Source of the DNA: an uncultured bacterium
GTDB lineage: Bacteria > Patescibacteriota > Minisyncoccia > Phycocordibacterales > UBA9973
Reading direction: 5' to 3'
DNA length: 35,440 nt
Assembly: GCA_903862375.1 (NCBI GenBank)
Contig: CAIOXR010000078.1
Location: forward strand, 1-35,440
Under the pieces are notes generated by a model. The model was not told the origin of the DNA and searched no databases. It saw nothing but the letters and a program-made list of their open reading frames with translations. Every line of letters begins with the position of its first letter. Position 1 is the first letter of the stretch. The translations under genes and the position numbers were made by a program. Below are positions 2,935 to 33,856 of this stretch, piece after piece.

Positions 2935-4154
2935 AAACAAAAGATATTTTAGAAGAAACAATTATGGCTCTTTCAAGTAATAAAGTTCGATCAGGACTTA
3001 CTATGCTCGGTATTATTATCGGTATCGCTTCAGTTATTGCTATGACAGCTATCGGTACTGGTGCACAGAATTCTATCTCAGCATCTATTCAGTCTATCGG
3101 TTCAAATCTTATTATAGTTTCACCTGGGGCACCTCGTGGGGTTGGCCAGCAAGTCAGACAAGAGCGTGGTTCAGCCAAGACTCTCACTTTAGCAGATGTG
3201 GAAGCATTAAAGACAATTAGTGGAGTTAAGTCAGTTACAGCTGAAGTATCAAGTAGGTATCAAGTTACAGCAAAAGGTACGAATACAAATACAACTGTAG
3301 ATGGTGTAACTACTGATTATTCTATTGTTAGGAATTTAGAAATGGGTGAGGGGAATTTTATTACAGATCAGAATAATCAAAGTGGAGCAAAAGTAGCAGT
3401 CATAGGTCCGACAGTAGTTATAGATCTTTTTGGAGAAGGGGCTACAGATATAGTTGGCCAGTCAATAAAAATTAAAAGTATACAATTTAAAGTAATAGGA
3501 ATAACAAAAGCAAAAGGTGGTACAGGTTTTCAGAATCCAGATGATATGATTTACATTCCTTTAACTACAGCACAAAGATACTTCTCAGGTGATCAATATG
3601 TGAGTTCGATAAGTGTTGCAGCTACAAGTTCTGATGTCACGACACAAGTTCAGACTGATATTACTACAAAGCTTTTAGATCGTCATCATATATCTAATCC
3701 TACTCTTGCAGATTTTAATACCATGAATCAGGCAGATATTATTAAGACTGCTTCTTCGGTGACCGGGACATTCACAATGTTACTTTCAGCTATAGCAGGT
3801 ATCTCTCTTCTTGTAGGAGGAATAGGTATTATGAATATGATGCTTACTTCTGTCACAGAGAGAACTAAAGAGATAGGGTTAAGGAAAGCAATAGGTGCTA
3901 AAAGGAGAGATGTAAATATACAGTTTTTAGTCGAAGCTGTAATGCTTACATTTATCGGAGGTGTACTAGGTGTGATACTTGGTTGGGGAGTATCATTTGC
4001 TATAACCTCACTAGGAATACTAGAGGCACAAGTGTCTCTATCGTCAGTATTGTTAGCTTTTGGTGTGTCAGCATTTATAGGTATTGTTTTCGGTTATTAC
4101 CCAGCACAAAGAGCTTCAAAGTTAAATCCTATTGAAGCATTGAGATATGAGTAG
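2931..4154 (+). CDS. ABC transporter permease (MacB periplasmic core domain plus FtsX 4-TM type)
   Basis: An N-terminal TM helix is followed by a large extracytoplasmic domain and a C-terminal FtsX-like region (TERTKEIGLRKAIGAKRRDVNIQFLVEA...PAQRASKLNPIEALRYE). Confidence 0.9.
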   Translation: MKTKDILEETIMALSSNKVRSGLTMLGIIIGIASVIAMTAIGTGAQNSISASIQSIGSNLIIVSPGAPRGVGQQVRQERGSAKTLTLADVEALKTISGVKSVTAEVSSRYQVTAKGTNTNTTVDGVTTDYSIVRNLEMGEGNFITDQNNQSGAKVAVIGPTVVIDLFGEGATDIVGQSIKIKSIQFKVIGITKAKGGTGFQNPDDMIYIPLTTAQRYFSGDQYVSSISVAATSSDVTTQVQTDITTKLLDRHHISNPTLADFNTMNQADIIKTASSVTGTFTMLLSAIAGISLLVGGIGIMNMMLTSVTERTKEIGLRKAIGAKRRDVNIQFLVEAVMLTFIGGVLGVILGWGVSFAITSLGILEAQVSLSSVLLAFGVSAFIGIVFGYYPAQRASKLNPIEALRYE

Positions 4155-4155
4155 T

Positions 4156-4343
4156 TGGTTTGGTTTAAAATAGTTCTTCTCAGAGGGTCCGGATAAAATT
4201 AGGTGGAATTTCCTTCCCCTATTGTCTACTGCGTAAAGACAATTTGCTTCGCAACTGGATGAAAAGTAAAGAAGTTTACTTTTCATTACCCGTTCGTCGC
4301 CCTTGCGCACGCCTTTCTGATAAGACTATTTTAAACTCAACTG
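4156..4343 (+). ncRNA. Unclassified GC-rich structured element A. A long closing helix encloses several hairpins, and the 3' half is homologous to 19665-19766.
   Basis: A helix of about 30 bp pairs 4156-4184 with 4316-4343, with a perfect core TTTAAAATAG / CTATTTTAAA. Internal hairpins are 4201-4220, 4221-4243 (ATTGTCT..AGACAAT) and 4257-4290 (TGAAAAGTAA..TTACTTTTCA). The GC content is far above the flanking DNA. Strand is assumed from the flanking genes. Confidence 0.45.
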
Positions 4344-4370
4344 TTATTATTAAATTAAAATAAATATTAT

Positions 4371-4838
4371 ATGGAAAATAAAAAAGTAATTATGAGTGTA
4401 GTAGTTTGTGTTGTTATAGCAGTTCTTAGTTTTTTGGGGGGTATGAGTTACGGAAAAGGGAAGAATAATACTATATCAACTAGACAAGGATCATATAGTC
4501 AGAATGGATTCAATCAGGGTGGATATTTGAAAGGGGCACAAGGAATGCGTAGTGGTAGAAGTGGAGGAATGATGAATGGTGGTGGCTTTACCTCTGGAGA
4601 AATTATTTCAAAAGACGATAAGAGTATGACTATCAAACTTCGAGATGGAGGATCAAAGATAGTATTATTTGGAGCATCTGCAAAAGTAGAGAAGACAGTA
4701 GATGGTAGTATAGCAGATGTAAGTGTAGGTAAGTCTGTGATGGTTACAGGGACTACAAATTCAGATGGAAGCATAAGTGCTACATCTATACAAATGAGAC
4801 CCGCATTCCCAGCTATAGCTCCATCCAAAACAAATTAG
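4371..4838 (+). CDS. Small membrane-anchored/secreted protein with a Gly-rich linker and a C-terminal beta-rich domain (DUF5666-like). It is a paralog of the 65-583 product.
   Basis: The N-terminal TM helix VIMSVVVCVVIAVLSFLGGM is followed by a G-rich low-complexity segment. Then comes GEIISKDDKSMTIKLRDGGSKIVLF...VMVTGTTNSDGSISATSIQMRP, which aligns to the first ORF. Confidence 0.6.
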   Translation: MENKKVIMSVVVCVVIAVLSFLGGMSYGKGKNNTISTRQGSYSQNGFNQGGYLKGAQGMRSGRSGGMMNGGGFTSGEIISKDDKSMTIKLRDGGSKIVLFGASAKVEKTVDGSIADVSVGKSVMVTGTTNSDGSISATSIQMRPAFPAIAPSKTN

Positions 4839-19181: not shown

Positions 19182-19397
19182 TTGTTTAATAAATTAAAAG
19201 ATCATAAATTAACTATTTTCTCTGGAGATATTGATAAATGTGTATTTGGAGACCAACTAGCAACTATGGATTTTAAAACAAGAATATTCTTTACTTATAC
19301 TGATAAAATAAAAATAGAGAATAAAATTAATTTACCTAAATATAGTGGATATATAATAAGTAGTAATTATGAAGGAGATATAAAGATAGAAAAATAA
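19182..19397 (+). CDS. Doubtful small ORF (71 codons, TTG start)
   Basis: It is an open frame only. It has no recognisable motif and its first in-frame ATG is internal. It is the only sizeable ORF in the 19144-19405 spacer. Confidence 0.25.
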   Translation: MFNKLKDHKLTIFSGDIDKCVFGDQLATMDFKTRIFFTYTDKIKIENKINLPKYSGYIISSNYEGDIKIEK

Positions 19398-19405
19398 TAT
19401 CTTTC

Positions 19406-19433
19406 TTGCAAATTTTAATTTTAGTGTTATCAT
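19406..19433 (+). promoter_or_regulatory. Candidate sigma70-type promoter of the ileS leader
   Basis: TTGCAA (19406-19411), a 16-nt spacer and an extended -10 TGtTATCAT (19425-19433). It lies just upstream of the T-box leader. Confidence 0.45.
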
Positions 19434-19440
19434 CTAGGTA

Positions 19441-19653
19441 TACGAAGAAGGAGTCATCACTCCTGAGTATTGGGAAGAAATGTTTCGTAAATCCGCCTTC
19501 GCAGGAAGGCTACGGCGAGACAAAGTAGAACCCTTTAATGAGAAGTCCCGTGCAATTCAGCGGGTAAAAAATGAGGTGGTACCACGTGTTTCATCGGAAG
19601 CTCGTCCTTATATAGCAATTATTATAATTGTTGTATGTGGACGAGTTTTTTTT
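19441..19653 (+). promoter_or_regulatory. T-box riboswitch leader (putative Ile specifier) controlling ileS by transcription attenuation
   Basis: The T-box core is AAAAAUGAGGUGGUACCACG (19567-19586). An antiterminator can form from GAGG (19573-19576) paired to CCUU (19606-19609), a 7-nt bulge UGGUACC, and ACG/CGU. Its 3' strand is shared with the terminator 5' arm. A Stem-III-like hairpin is CCCG..CGGG (19547-19564). AUC-A sits at 19456-19459 in the apical loop of hairpin 19450-19463. Confidence 0.75.
19601..19653 (+). terminator. Intrinsic terminator of the T-box leader
   Basis: CTCGTCC (19601-19607) pairs with GGACGAG (19639-19645). The stem extends inward with A-U and G-U pairs and is followed by T8 (19646-19653). 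Confidence 0.8.
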
Positions 19654-19664
19654 GTTTATGTTAC

Positions 19665-19766
19665 ATAAAAATATTTTCGTTTCGCTAACGGATAAATTTC
19701 TACTGAAATTTTCCTCATTGCTCGGCTCGACAGCCTCCGCAGTGGCTCATCTGAAAATATTTTTAT
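19665..19766 (+). ncRNA. Unclassified structured element B, homologous to the 3' half of element A. It lies in the ileS 5' UTR downstream of the T-box terminator.
   Basis: A 14-bp closing helix is ATAAAAATATTTTC (19665-19678) / GAAAATATTTTTAT (19753-19766). The 74-nt GC-rich core contains hairpin GGAUAAAUUUC-UACU-GAAAUUUUCC and a GC hairpin. About 65 percent of positions align with 4244-4320. Confidence 0.45.
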
Positions 19767-19811
19767 TTTACCTTTATAAGTTTAATTATTATAAATATTT
19801 TAATAAAATAT

Positions 19812-22800
19812 ATGGAAGAAAAAAATCAAAAGTCAAATAGTGCATTAAGAGAAGAAGCTGTTTTAAAATTCTGGAAAGAGAATGATATTTTCGAAAAGAG
19901 TTTAAAGAAAGACGCACCAAAAGGTAAATATGTTTTTTATGATGGTCCTCCTTTTGCTACGGGTTTGCCTCATTATGGTCATATTCTTGGAAGTGCAGTA
20001 AAAGATGTTATCGGTAGGTATAAAACAATGAGTGGATATAATGTTCCTCGTCGTTGGGGTTGGGATTGTCATGGTTTACCTATTGAAAATATTGTTGAAA
20101 AAGATTTAGGTATTTCAGGAAAGAAAGCCATCGAAGCATTAGGGATAGATAAGTTTACAGAACACGCACGTAGTAAGGTTCTTACTTATGTCTCCGAATG
20201 GAAGAAGACTGTTGATCGTATGGGACGCTGGGTAGATTTTGATAACTCCTATAAGACTATGGATAATACTTTTATAGAAAGTGTCTGGTGGGCATTAGGT
20301 GAAATGAATAAAAAAGGTTTACTTTACGAAGGAGTAAGAGTATTAGCATATTGCCCTCGATGTGAGACACCAATAGCAAACTCAGAAATAGCTATGGATA
20401 ATAGTTATAAAGATATCACTGATATTTCTGTATATGTTAAATTTAAAATTTTAGATAAAAAATATAAAGATACTTATCTTCTGGCTTGGACTACGACCCC
20501 TTGGACACTTCCTGGTAATACTGCCATAGCTATAAATAAAGATTTAGTTTATATATTAGTGAAAAATATTACAGATAAAGGTGAAGAAGTGTATATAGTA
20601 TCAAAAGATTTATTTGAAAGTTTAAGAAGTAAATTTAATAATCCTGAAATTATTAAAGAAGTAAAAGGTGAAGATTTAATCGGTCTTTCTTATGAACCAA
20701 TTTTTTCTTATTATGAAAATGTTGAAATACCAAATAAAGAAAATATTTGGAAAGTTTGGCATGCTGATTTTGTGACAATGGAAAAAGGTACTGGTATTGC
20801 GCATGAGGCTCCTGCCTTTGGTGAAGATGACATGAATCTGGCAAAGATGAATAATATTCCTTTTATTCGTCATGTTGAACCAAATGGTGATTTCTCAAAA
20901 GAAGTTACTGATTTCCCAAATGTGAAAGCAAAACCCAAAGAAGATCATCAATCTACTGATATATTAATTATTAAATATTTGGCTGGTAGTGGACATCTTT
21001 TTGCCAAAGAAAAAATAATACACTCATATCCTCATTGTTACCGTTGTGAGACACCACTTTTGTATTATGCTCTTCCATCTTGGTTTATAAATATTCAAAA
21101 AGTAAAAAATGATTTAATTAAGAAGGGTGAAGATATGAATTGGATACCAGGACATTTAAAAGATGGGCGCTTTAAGCAAACTATGGAAAGTGCACCAGAT
21201 TGGACTATATCTCGTAATCGTTATTGGGCAAGTCCATTACCATTTTGGAAATCAAAAAGTGGCAAACTAATAGTTATAAGTTCACTAGAGGATCTAAAAT
21301 CAAAAATAAAGAAATCTGGAAATAAATATTTTGTAATGCGTCATGGAGAAGCAGAGTGTAATGTCAGTAAAGTTATTTTAGATGATGATCAAGCGAATAA
21401 TTGTAAACTTACAGAAAAAGGTAGGGAGCAAGTTAAAGATAGTTCTAAGAATTTTAAAGAAAAGATAGATATCATAATTGCTTCTCCTTTGGAAAGAACT
21501 AGAGAAACTACAAAAATTATTTGTGAAAATATTGGTTTTCCTTTAGATAAAGTTATATACAGTGACCTTGAAAAAGAATGGGATGTTAGCTCAAATTTTC
21601 AAGGTAAATCCAGAGAAGATTTTGAAGATTATTATTGTAGACAATATTTGAATCATCCATTTGAAGCATTACCAAATGGAGAGAGTTATTCTCAGCTTGT
21701 ATATCGTGTTGGTAAAATGATTTATGATATAGATAGTAAATATAATGGGAAAAATATTCTTTTAGTTGGGCATGCAGGTGAAACCAGTGCTCTTAATCAT
21801 GTGGTTCAAGGATTTTCTTTTGAGACATTAGCGAAAGATTTGCATTTTCCTTCATATTTAAAGAATGCTGAGATAAGAGAACTTGATTTTATTCCTTTAC
21901 CTCACAATCATAATTATGAACTTGATTTTCATCGTCCATATATTGACTCCATTATACTTGTAGATGATGAAGGGGAAGAATACAAAAGAATTTCTGAAGT
22001 TGTAGATTGTTGGTTTGAATCTGGGTCTATGCCTTTTGCTCAAAATCATTACCCATTTGAGTGTCCTAATTGGAAAGAAGAAAATTTTCCATCAGGTTTT
22101 GTTGCTGAGTATATAGCTCAAACTCGAACATGGTTTTACTATACACATACTATTTCTACTATTCTTTTTGGAGAAGCACCATTTGAGAATGTTGTGACGA
22201 CTGGAACTGTATTAGCAGAAGATGGGGCTAAGATGTCGAAATCTAAGAATAATTATCCTGATCCATGGTTATTATTTAATAAATATGGAGTTGATGCTCT
22301 TCGTTTTTATTTAGTATCTTCTACTCTTATGAAAGGAGAGGATGTTAATTTCTCTGAAAAGTTAGTACAAGAGGTCGCTAGTAAGATAATTAATCGTTTT
22401 GATAATGTAGTTTCTTTTTATGAATTATATAAAGGAGATTTTGATCCAGAAAGTGAACATGAAATATCAAAAAATGTTTTAGATATTTGGATCATATCAA
22501 GATTAAAACAATTTGTTTTAGAAGTAGAAGATGGTATGAAATCCTATGATTTAGCACAAGCGACAAAACCATTTGAATTGTTTATTGAAGATTTATCTAC
22601 ATGGTATTTGCGTAGATCTCGCGATAGATTAAAAGAAAATGATGCTGAATCTAAACAGACGCTATATTTTGTGTTAAAGGTAACAGTTCAGTTATTTGCT
22701 CCATTTATGCCATTTATTGCTGATGATATTTGGCAGAAAATCCGATTTGAATCGGATCCTGTAAGTGTTCATCTTACAGACTTTTTTGATGGAATTAAAA

Positions 22801-23291
22801 TAGATAGTATAGATACTAAAATAATAAATGAAATGCAAGAAGTTCGTGAGGTTGTTACTTTGGGTCTTCAAGCGAGACAAAAAGCAGGAATACCAGTAAG
22901 ACAGCCTTTGGGTGAGCTAGTAGTTACTAATTACAAGCTACCTAAAGAATACGAAGAGATAGTCAAAGATGAATTAAATATAAAAGAGATTAAGATATTA
23001 GATGGTGAAGAAAAGAAAGTAGAGATAGATACGGATATCACACCCGAGCTTCGTACAGAGGGTCAGTATAGAGAGCTTGTAAGAGCTATACAAGATATGA
23101 GGAAAAAAGCAGGACTTAACCCAAGTGATATTGTAAATATCATAATATCTACCTCTAAAGAAGGAGAAGGTCTAATAAATAAATTTAAGAATGAACTACT
23201 AAAAGCAGTAGGGTCAAATGAGATAAAAATAAAAGAGAATAATGGAACTGAGGTCAAGATTGATGATTTAATATTTGTCATAAGTATATAA
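19812..23291 (+). CDS. ileS: Isoleucine--tRNA ligase (type 2-like) carrying an inserted histidine-phosphatase domain
   Basis: It has HIGH as PHYGHILG, the CP1 editing motif TTTPWTLPGNTA, RNRYWASPLPFW, and KMSKS as AKMSKSKNN. At 1159 aa it includes an insert of about 195 aa, listed separately. Confidence 0.95.
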   Translation: MEEKNQKSNSALREEAVLKFWKENDIFEKSLKKDAPKGKYVFYDGPPFATGLPHYGHILGSAVKDVIGRYKTMSGYNVPRRWGWDCHGLPIENIVEKDLGISGKKAIEALGIDKFTEHARSKVLTYVSEWKKTVDRMGRWVDFDNSYKTMDNTFIESVWWALGEMNKKGLLYEGVRVLAYCPRCETPIANSEIAMDNSYKDITDISVYVKFKILDKKYKDTYLLAWTTTPWTLPGNTAIAINKDLVYILVKNITDKGEEVYIVSKDLFESLRSKFNNPEIIKEVKGEDLIGLSYEPIFSYYENVEIPNKENIWKVWHADFVTMEKGTGIAHEAPAFGEDDMNLAKMNNIPFIRHVEPNGDFSKEVTDFPNVKAKPKEDHQSTDILIIKYLAGSGHLFAKEKIIHSYPHCYRCETPLLYYALPSWFINIQKVKNDLIKKGEDMNWIPGHLKDGRFKQTMESAPDWTISRNRYWASPLPFWKSKSGKLIVISSLEDLKSKIKKSGNKYFVMRHGEAECNVSKVILDDDQANNCKLTEKGREQVKDSSKNFKEKIDIIIASPLERTRETTKIICENIGFPLDKVIYSDLEKEWDVSSNFQGKSREDFEDYYCRQYLNHPFEALPNGESYSQLVYRVGKMIYDIDSKYNGKNILLVGHAGETSALNHVVQGFSFETLAKDLHFPSYLKNAEIRELDFIPLPHNHNYELDFHRPYIDSIILVDDEGEEYKRISEVVDCWFESGSMPFAQNHYPFECPNWKEENFPSGFVAEYIAQTRTWFYYTHTISTILFGEAPFENVVTTGTVLAEDGAKMSKSKNNYPDPWLLFNKYGVDALRFYLVSSTLMKGEDVNFSEKLVQEVASKIINRFDNVVSFYELYKGDFDPESEHEISKNVLDIWIISRLKQFVLEVEDGMKSYDLAQATKPFELFIEDLSTWYLRRSRDRLKENDAESKQTLYFVLKVTVQLFAPFMPFIADDIWQKIRFESDPVSVHLTDFFDGIKIDSIDTKIINEMQEVREVVTLGLQARQKAGIPVRQPLGELVVTNYKLPKEYEEIVKDELNIKEIKILDGEEKKVEIDTDITPELRTEGQYRELVRAIQDMRKKAGLNPSDIVNIIISTSKEGEGLINKFKNELLKAVGSNEIKIKENNGTEVKIDDLIFVISI
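21324..21917 (+). other. Histidine phosphatase (phosphoglycerate-mutase-like) domain embedded in-frame within IleRS (about aa 505-702)
   Basis: KYFVMRHGEAECN carries the RHG catalytic motif. IIASPLERTRETT carries the second Arg region. ILLVGHAGETSAL carries the distal catalytic His. The domain is flanked by IleRS core segments: ...PFWKSKSGKLIVISSLEDLK on the left and ELDFHRPYID...VVDCWFESGSMP on the right. Confidence 0.8.
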
Positions 23292-32977: not shown

Positions 32978-33856
32978 ATGCCTAAATATATAGACATACA
33001 CGCACATACGAATTTTAAAGCTTTTGAAGAAGATCGAGATCAAGTTATTTCTCGTGCACTTGAGAATGATACATGGATTATAAATATAGGAACTCAGTAT
33101 GATACGTCTAAAAAAGCAGTTCATATGACTAACGAATATGGAGAAGGTGTATATGCAACAATAGGACTTCATCCAATTCATACTTCTGCTTCTTATCATG
33201 ATGAAAATGAGTTAGGTGAGGATGGTAAAGAATTTACTTCAAGAGGAGAAGTTTTTGATAAAGAGAAATATAAAGAGTTAGCATCACAAGGTAAGGTAGT
33301 AGCGATAGGTGAGTGTGGCCTTGATTATTATCACTTGGAAGAAGATAGTATTGAAAAACAAAAATCCGCATTTATATCACAGATAGAACTTGCGAATGAA
33401 CTTGGTTTACCTTTAATGCTCCATGTTAGGAATAACAATACAGATAAAACTCACAATGCATATTTTGATGTTTATGAATTAATTAAAAAATATTCAAAAA
33501 CTAATGAAGTCGGACTTCCTTATATCAGGGGGGTATCACATTTTTTTGCAGGAAGCGTAGAGGATATGAAAAGATTTATGGAGATAGGTGTATACATATC
33601 TTTTGCTGGTCCTATTACTTATAAGCCAAACTTACTTATTTGTGATTATGAAACTGTAATAAAAGAGACACCTATAGATATGATACTTGCTGATACAGAT
33701 AGTCCTTACGTGGCCCCAGTGCCTCATAGAGGTACTAGGAATGAGCCTTTGTATGTAAAGGATATAGTAAACAAAATTGCTCAAATTAAAGGTTTAGATG
33801 AAGATGAGGTGGCAAGACAGATAGTTATTAATGCAAAAAAGTTATTTAAAATATAA
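32978..33856 (+). CDS. tatD: TatD-family metal-dependent hydrolase/DNase
   Basis: Motifs are IDIHAHTNF, GECGLDY, LHVRN, SHFFAG and ADTDSPY. Confidence 0.9.
   Translation: MPKYIDIHAHTNFKAFEEDRDQVISRALENDTWIINIGTQYDTSKKAVHMTNEYGEGVYATIGLHPIHTSASYHDENELGEDGKEFTSRGEVFDKEKYKELASQGKVVAIGECGLDYYHLEEDSIEKQKSAFISQIELANELGLPLMLHVRNNNTDKTHNAYFDVYELIKKYSKTNEVGLPYIRGVSHFFAGSVEDMKRFMEIGVYISFAGPITYKPNLLICDYETVIKETPIDMILADTDSPYVAPVPHRGTRNEPLYVKDIVNKIAQIKGLDEDEVARQIVINAKKLFKI

Follow-up and report, generated by a model that had tools for sequence, protein, structure and literature searches.

Rickettsia palindromic elements (RPE), reportedly described by Ogata et al. 2000 (Science) and in later work, are palindromic repeats of ~100-150 bp that form a long hairpin and are present in dozens of copies in a small, reduced genome. 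They lie between genes and also in-frame within housekeeping genes, which are translated through them, so that the protein gains an additional peptide segment. We know of no transposase encoded by them, of no clear target duplication and of no established route by which they move. The genomes of the Candidate Phyla Radiation (CPR), in turn, are seen as streamlined, with little mobile DNA. Here we analyze a folded stretch, element B, in the 5' untranslated region of ileS in a CPR genome; it lies in a 35,440-nt stretch of DNA that we call the window, and positions given without a contig handle refer to it. An earlier note had taken B for a second layer of control on read-through ileS transcripts or, alternatively, for a small mobile palindromic element. 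We consider it most likely that B is a passenger, and that the palindromic element of which it is a copy, ~105 nt long and dispersed in this genome and in part of the class Paceibacteria, is selfish and RPE-like.

The only promoter-like site found in the ileS leader, a TG-extended TTGCAA-16-TATCAT at 19406-19433 (+), lies outside the repeat; shuffled sequences yield 1.7 ± 1.4 such sites, and thus it counts as a consensus match only. It is followed by the divergent T-box leader of ileS at 19436-19612 (+), which matches Rfam RF00230 with 32.3 bits (E 2e-5) against a gathering score of 93. The specifier is AUC, within GAGUC-AUC-ACUCC, and AUC is also found in the leaders of G012, G010 and G017, which together with this genome make up the four leaders read. 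The ileS T-boxes of the group score 32-63 bits against the same gathering score of 93 (window 19436-19612 and loci L015, L016, L031, L033, L036 and L038). The distal part of Stem I is mostly missing from the T-box in the window, where 6 nt replace 76 model positions.

As the earlier note had described, a T-box terminator with a T8 run precedes the module. Read from the sequence, the terminator (19598-19653, +) consists of a hairpin at 19598-19645 with the stem AAGCUCGUCC...GGACGAG, followed by T8 at 19646-19653; the hairpin is conserved in G010 and G017. Element B begins 9-10 nt after the T8 run, and the ileS coding sequence (19812-23291, +) opens with an ATG at 19812, 42 nt past the end of B. 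B lies outside the T-box, since the Rfam match ends at 19612, before the 3' arm of the terminator, and B starts at 19663. A scan of the sequence detected neither a promoter-like nor a terminator-like site within B, and no promoter that could bypass the T-box was found after B. Any ileS transcript that reads through the terminator must include B.

Element B (19663-19769, +) is a full repeat copy of the B-type subfamily. It scores 86.2 bits (E 1.4e-18) over positions 1-109 of R1, a covariance model of the family whose 38 training sequences included B itself; an nhmmer profile with neither B nor element A, the other copy discussed below, in its seed finds B at E 1e-14. B belongs to this repeat family, and its closest paralogue, on contig C95 (2977-3045), is 94% identical over 69 nt by blastn. 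The R1 score extends over the full model, in which a long P1, P2 and P3 are arranged round a three-way junction. The outer part of P1 pairs AUAAAAAUAUUUUC (19665-19678, +) with GAAAAUAUUUUUAU (19753-19766, +) in the perfect 14-bp complement that the earlier note had recognized. Beyond an internal loop, inner P1 pairs GCUA (19684-19687, +) with UGGC (19743-19746), a pairing likewise read from the sequence, and the C95 copy has GCCA:UGGC at the same place.

P2 (19690-19714, +) is a hairpin with a bulged U, GGA(U)AAAUUUC - UACU - GAAAUUUUCC, which had already been proposed as GGAUAAAUUUC-UACU-GAAAUUUUCC. P3 (19719-19741, +) is formed by UGC (19719-19721) paired with GCA (19739-19741), an internal loop and then GGCU-CGAC-AGCC (19724-19735). 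The GC hairpin suggested earlier, (A)CAGC-CUCC-GCAG(U), has an A-A mismatch and has to be given up, as covariation backs UGC..GGCU-CGAC-AGCC..GCA at 19719-19741 instead. The segment 19655-19815 folds with -31.8 kcal/mol compared with -18.9 ± 3.1 for shuffled sequences (z -4.15; 0/200 shuffles as good), and in the predicted fold B is unpaired with the ileS start region. The two strands of B fold alike (-30.2 vs -30.1 kcal/mol). A hammerhead-like pattern on the reverse strand of B (CAGAUGAG...CGAAAC) was rejected, as both stem I and an Rfam match are missing.

Copies of the same element are found throughout the host assembly (0.90 Mb, 110 contigs, 31% G+C). Blastn searches of the whole assembly with B and A returned many matches on both strands, and the nhmmer profile, built from 13 canonical copies with B and A left out, located 38 places. 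R1, built from 38 aligned copies with a structure written by hand and checked row by row, likewise reports 38 copies at E <= 0.01. The family is multicopy, occurs in both orientations and lies between genes as well as in-frame inside housekeeping genes. The earlier note had named multiple copies in both orientations as the mark of a repeat, and its alternative of a mobile palindromic element agrees with what is seen here: ~38 copies in both orientations, some of them inside genes. Adjacent copies in opposite orientation are common; they are 15-70 nt apart, convergent or divergent, and usually of differing subfamilies (G000 C3:13747-13855(-)/13906-14014(+) and C91:465-573(+)/640-748(-); also in G023, G021, G003, G004, G008 and G017).

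The family unit is ~105 nt long and has a conserved three-way junction closed by P1. P1 comprises 20-28 bp and varies in sequence between copies and subfamilies; P2 has ~10 bp, a bulged U and the loop CUGCUG; P3 consists of UGC:GCA, an internal loop and a 4-bp GC stem with the loop CGAC or CGUC. The short junction is a separate part of the copy anatomy beside these helices. In an alignment of 57 copies from many genomes, 92.6% of the cells in paired columns are paired, compared with 60.7% after column shuffling and 40-52% with slid partners, and 36 of the 37 pairs vary on both sides. For helix 2 (P2), 97.7% of the cells are paired and all pairs (10/10) vary on both sides; for helices 3 and 4 (P3), 94.0% and 96.8% are paired and 6/7 pairs vary on both sides. 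The 57-copy alignment was fitted to R1, which favours the structure; the margin is very large nonetheless, and the same pairing pattern is already visible in the raw MAFFT alignment. Compensatory differences, which the earlier note had read from B and A, cannot be claimed from two sequences but are abundant across the 57 copies.

P1 has a common sequence within a subfamily, namely AAATAGCTCTTCTC...GATAAGACTATTT in this genome and GCCTYGGCGC..TTTTGCAAG in another family of genomes, where it is found in copies from three different genes. Since subfamilies share P1, the stem is carried along with the element and drifts apart through paired changes. Rfam 15 yields no gathering-level match in the window and, even at E <= 10, nothing relevant for B or A (19300-19900 and 4100-4420, both strands). 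A literature text search of incomplete coverage retrieved no description of palindromic repeats or MITEs in Patescibacteria. With neither an Rfam match nor a literature description found, the family is apparently undescribed, which is not proof of novelty. Two further places in G000 (C10:2471-2565 and C65:432-533) match R1 weakly, with 27-32 bits; they combine a P2-like hairpin with a different, G+C-rich remainder and may belong to a related family.

Element A (4163-4337, +) is a long composite copy, in which canonical P1 arms are combined with an extra internal module bearing the B-type motif UUCGCAAC-UGGAU. R1 gives it 31-43 bits, and the profile seeded without A or B matches its two halves at E 3e-8 and 5e-4, the nhmmer matches within A lying at 4168-4214 and 4281-4333. 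Similar long variants are found at C9:2681-2850, C97:3602-3790 and C89:7271-7440; the B-type 5' motif UUCGCUAAC-GGAU forms an internal module in A and three other long copies, and the half-element matches in this genome all fall in long composite copies. The homology of B and A, proposed earlier from an alignment of the two, stands when drawn through the family profile and the covariance model. The alignment itself does not: 19679-19752 against 4244-4320 scores 15, compared with 13.5 ± 2.1 for dinucleotide shuffles (493/2000 as high; z 0.7), and blastn gives no direct B-A match. Thus, it is the family profile only that links the two elements. Element A is fixed in ten other assemblies: all those that contain the gene beside it have the same 216-nt spacer, and no allele with an empty site was seen. 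The short-read Logan contigs L109, L110 and L111, from other samples, stop ~110 nt upstream of the gene at window position 4371, inside element A.

To place B among its orthologous leaders, the ileS 5' regions of 30 genomes were searched with R1 and Rfam. The nearest ileS orthologues lack the element: G012 and G010, with IleRS N-terminal identities of 87% and 85%, each have the T-box and its terminator followed by ~20-30 nt to the ATG, with no element between. The retention in related ileS leaders by which the earlier note would have judged a functional role is therefore missing in both of the closest relatives. In G017 (52% identity), a copy of another subfamily lies 12 nt past the terminator T-run in B's orientation, and in G014 and G018 (49%) a copy lies upstream of the T-box. 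With no element in G012 and G010, another subfamily in G017 and another position in G014 and G018, B is not a conserved component of that leader. Insertions into the spacer upstream of ileS have occurred on at least three separate occasions, and the two independent copies that lie in the same orientation after the ileS T-box terminator in this genome and G017 might reflect a preferred site or some benefit.

Other copies reside within protein-coding genes. Two in-frame copies in this genome, in TsaD (C85:1291-1398) and RecG (C3:3264-3371), add 36-37 residues each. The TsaD insert is common to G003, G005 and G008, G015 retains its C-terminal third only, and the TsaD of G004, G010, G001 and G014 is without it; the RecG insert is common to G005 and G017 and missing in at least 10 relatives. 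Simple reading-frame calls place 18 of the 57 sampled copies within long reading frames. In 15 of these 18, the sense strand is the one that folds better, mostly in one frame, which gives peptides like LAQRDGASRAIRQQANMRV; two of the 18 (L136 and L137) are at the very N-terminal end of the open frame, so that the true start may in fact lie downstream of them. Hosts confirmed by Pfam include UvrA, LeuRS, an IleRS-type synthetase, MiaA, a MurD-type ligase, an HhH-GPD glycosylase, MPG and a class-V aminotransferase. Since the intragenic copies have a higher G+C content and are free of stop codons, they are probably translated, with predicted peptide segments such as ...LAQRDGASRAIRQQ....

In TsaD, the orthologous copies from this genome, G003 and G005 have P1 in common but differ by paired changes in P2 and P3. 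The fold may be selected in resident copies, or the hairpin may undergo self-correction, for example through template switching in quasi-palindromes. The core of the element is very highly conserved, and these compensatory changes fit selection on the fold, which a purely selfish element does not obviously predict. The TsaD loop between ...AxxxR and LPRPM carries differing inserts from genome to genome, for example LLIEEGVGGGDLKINHHPALSGTPP (L052/G006, L056/G009, L047/G016 and L049/G017), and looks like a hotspot that tolerates repeated insertions. The LeuRS at L129 (G098:C1 ~81723-81829), host of an in-frame copy, has a NUDIX domain (Pfam E 4e-13) beside the editing domain.

To analyze the distribution of the element, we searched genomes at several taxonomic ranges, all of them MAGs. 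It is present in 34 of 41 relatives, with 1-36 copies each, and in 11 of the 17 genera and families of the order. Among 251 genomes drawn evenly from the class, 25 have it, corresponding to 19 of 190 genera; per-genome counts in these large searches are lower bounds, as 12-15 candidates per genome were scored. Of 301 genomes sampled across the phylum, none outside the class Paceibacteria gave a hit. Among named records, near-identical cores turn up in Candidatus Paceibacteria and Nomurabacteria MAGs. Neither phage records, searched by blastn with a canonical copy, nor viral contigs, searched with two core patterns, gave any match. Exact-pattern matches in GC-rich Acidobacteriota, Actinomycetota and Gemmatimonadaceae were set aside as unrelated, since the surrounding sequence shows no element. 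From the distribution, we infer that the element is mobile.

The fold of the element depends on the strand. In 31 of 34 copies, the modelled strand, which in B is the ileS-sense strand, folds less well than its reverse complement (mean difference 6.7 kcal/mol, p 1e-6). Helix mismatches on the modelled strand comprise 98 pyrimidine-pyrimidine vs 14 purine-purine and 42 A-C vs 33 G-U oppositions, and the opposite strand turns them into purine-purine and G-U. A fold that belongs to one strand, in an element inserted in both directions, agrees with passage through a single-stranded intermediate and agrees less well with an RNA motif that serves the neighbouring gene.

One possible alternative is that the family is a structured module useful to its host, such as a stabiliser of mRNA ends, a terminator or insulator, or a platform for protein binding, and that B modulates the stability or read-through of ileS transcripts. 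The very strong covariation, the junction that is nearly invariant across genera and the compensatory changes between orthologous TsaD copies would all suit such a module, as would the many copies that begin 5-30 nt from a stop codon and the two independent same-orientation copies after an ileS T-box terminator. However, relative to the flanking reading frames, 17 copies are sense, 13 antisense, 4 convergent and 2 divergent, and this shows no orientation bias. Intrinsic termination was rejected as a function, since T-tracts are not enriched on the transcription-downstream side of the stem (3.28 vs 3.0 T per 8 nt, p 0.39) and B has no terminator-like site. One third of the sampled copies are in-frame within coding sequences, the distribution is patchy, and the closest ileS leaders are without the element. 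Overall, we regard a host-serving module as improbable.

The more specific proposal that B is an ileS regulator, which acts on read-through transcripts via translation, stability or IleRS binding, has in its favour that B is stably folded between the attenuator and the start codon and that G017 shows a similar arrangement. This second layer of control, favoured by the earlier note, is nevertheless very hard to reconcile with two closest ileS leaders that lack the element and with ~38 copies scattered in both orientations, 37 of them other than B and located beside unrelated genes or inside genes. In addition, the G017 copy is from another subfamily, and B ends 42 nt before an ATG whose surroundings are unpaired with B in the predicted fold. 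Equally slight, in our judgement, is the chance that the conserved three-way junction is a multicopy catalytic RNA, for example a self-cleaving ribozyme. A three-helix junction whose conserved joining nucleotides are purine-rich on the better-folding strand, present in many copies and both orientations, does resemble hammerhead and twister ribozymes; however, even at E <= 10 none of the Rfam ribozyme families gives a match, and 15 of the 18 intragenic copies put the better-folding strand in a housekeeping mRNA, which self-cleavage would destroy. Given the many copies and the closest leaders without the element, B is most likely a passenger rather than a further ileS switch. The best-supported reading of B is that of an insertion which is tolerated and which leaves the T-box decision untouched, although it may still exert a mild, constant effect on transcript stability or translation.

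How the element might move was approached from its ends and from candidate enzymes. For the family, no encoded protein or transposase and no terminal inverted repeat conserved across all copies was found, and no parent IS turned up, the half-element matches of this genome all belonging to long composite copies. By eye, the flanks of 33 copies contain no direct repeats, with exact ends uncertain and a 2-nt palindromic duplication still compatible, and no conserved target motif outside the stems; they extend the inverted complementarity by a mean of 2.8 nt, compared with 1.3 nt in controls. All copies have self-complementary ends, whose sequence is common only within subfamilies and otherwise covaries freely. 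The genome encodes three Y1_Tnp proteins of ~237-267 aa (C39:16135-16938, C80:6569-7282 and C99:11024-11740) with HUH (NHFH) and Y-I-H-L-N-P motifs, and their best NCBIfam match is the REP-associated tyrosine transposase (REP_Tyr_transpos), at 27-44 bits against a cut-off of 80. Y1 genes are present in 33/41 relatives and 153/251 class genomes, often in several copies.

It is tempting to refine the preferred explanation by regarding the family as a REP/REPIN-like element moved as single-stranded DNA by these RAYT-like HUH tyrosine transposases. The three genes with their motifs, their best NCBIfam match and the Y1 genes of most relatives speak for it; a strand-asymmetric fold is expected of a single-stranded substrate, and the P3 loop CGAC/CGTC recalls the CGTC-tagged REPs of PMC3733652. 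However, the NCBIfam scores are under the cut-off, and each RAYT-like gene is bracketed by its own short hairpin, for example GGAAGTCCGACTTCC or CTAGGTCTTGCCTAG, whereas the nearest 105-nt element is at least 1.1 kb from any of the three. In tallies that ignore phylogeny, a Y1 gene is found in 30/34 relatives with the element vs 3/7 without it, and in 19/25 class genomes with it vs 134/226 without it, the latter a weak co-occurrence; G252 has at least six copies and no Y1 match. Moreover, variable arms round a conserved centre in a unit of ~105 nt are the reverse of REPIN architecture. A specific RAYT link was rejected, as the hairpins beside the RAYT-like genes are different ones and the genes have a far wider distribution than the element; we consider movement by these enzymes unlikely, though less so than a host-serving module.

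The hairpin that flanks the C80 RAYT-like gene, the short palindrome GAAGTCGGACTTC, is also found inside the gene itself at C80:6761-6773 and has ~7 copies in the genome. In the window it lies at 33506-33518, in-frame (peptide NEVGLP) in the reading frame 32978-33856, which is TatD-like by eye. GAAGTCGGACTTC may represent a second, smaller repeat family that also invades genes.

We then propose a model in which the family is a selfish mobile element analogous to RPE. It would spread in trans via a single-stranded intermediate, in which the folded strand would be the reverse complement of the ileS mRNA strand. B would have entered the spacer between terminator and start codon after the lineage split from its closest relatives. 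As a tolerated passenger, it would add a stable hairpin to read-through transcripts and take no part in the T-box decision. More tentatively, we suggest that this is an undescribed family confined to Paceibacteria, with a three-way junction and a hypervariable closing stem, that colonizes housekeeping genes in-frame as RPE do, and that it is the first such case in the CPR, its fold being kept by compensatory change in orthologous coding copies. If so, it would point either to a new route of movement that reads a single-stranded fold and needs no terminal repeats, no target duplication and no transposase encoded by the element, or to a host function of the fold.

Our results correct the earlier reading of this locus: the ileS T-box leader would carry a passenger repeat, without a second regulatory layer. 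The ~38 copies of a structured repeat in this genome contrast with the usual view of CPR genomes as poor in mobile DNA. A repeat that is read through in UvrA, LeuRS, MiaA, MurD, TsaD and RecG may explain some of the odd insertions in CPR proteins, and it breaks short-read assemblies of the host organism. The strand-asymmetric, covarying three-way junction offers a concrete substrate for the question of movement, one shared with the Rickettsia elements.

Compared with known systems, B shares with the T-box leader (RF00230) the 5' untranslated region in which it lies, directly after the terminator; however, it is wholly outside the model span and absent from the leaders of close relatives, and the element is mostly found at sites without a T-box. 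Like REP/REPIN sequences, the family consists of dispersed palindromes thought to act as single-stranded hairpins, with RAYT-like genes in its genomes and with adjacent inverted copy pairs. REPs, however, are 20-40 nt long, have a conserved GTAG or CGTC head and flank their RAYT gene, whereas the element has ~105 nt and a three-way junction, carries CGAC/CGTC in the P3 loop and not at its end, lies apart from the RAYT-like genes and co-occurs with them weakly across the class. CREE/NEMIS of Neisseria, and MITEs of bacteria in general, are likewise non-autonomous dispersed repeats of ~100-150 bp with self-complementary ends, often located in 5' or 3' untranslated regions in either orientation. 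The defining features of a MITE are terminal inverted repeats of conserved sequence, a duplicated target site (TA for Correia) and a parent IS; the element, in contrast, has terminal stems that vary in sequence, its flanks showed no direct repeat by eye and the search brought up no parent IS, and for B neither promoter nor terminator activity is predicted. Reviews on such repeats include PMC3184786, PMC2229807 and PMC10969869.

The closest likeness is to the Rickettsia palindromic elements, which are mentioned in PMC1779305 and PMC10969869. Both are palindromic, are found in small genomes, have intergenic as well as in-frame copies and lack a known mobilising protein; the element, at ~100 nt, falls within the RPE pattern of ~100-150 bp palindromes that are both intergenic and in-frame in coding genes. 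Its host belongs to another phylum (CPR, Paceibacteria), so that no sequence relation is expected, and we claim analogy, not membership. What distinguishes the element from RPE is its conserved three-way junction centre, with arms that vary by covariation and a strand-asymmetric fold.
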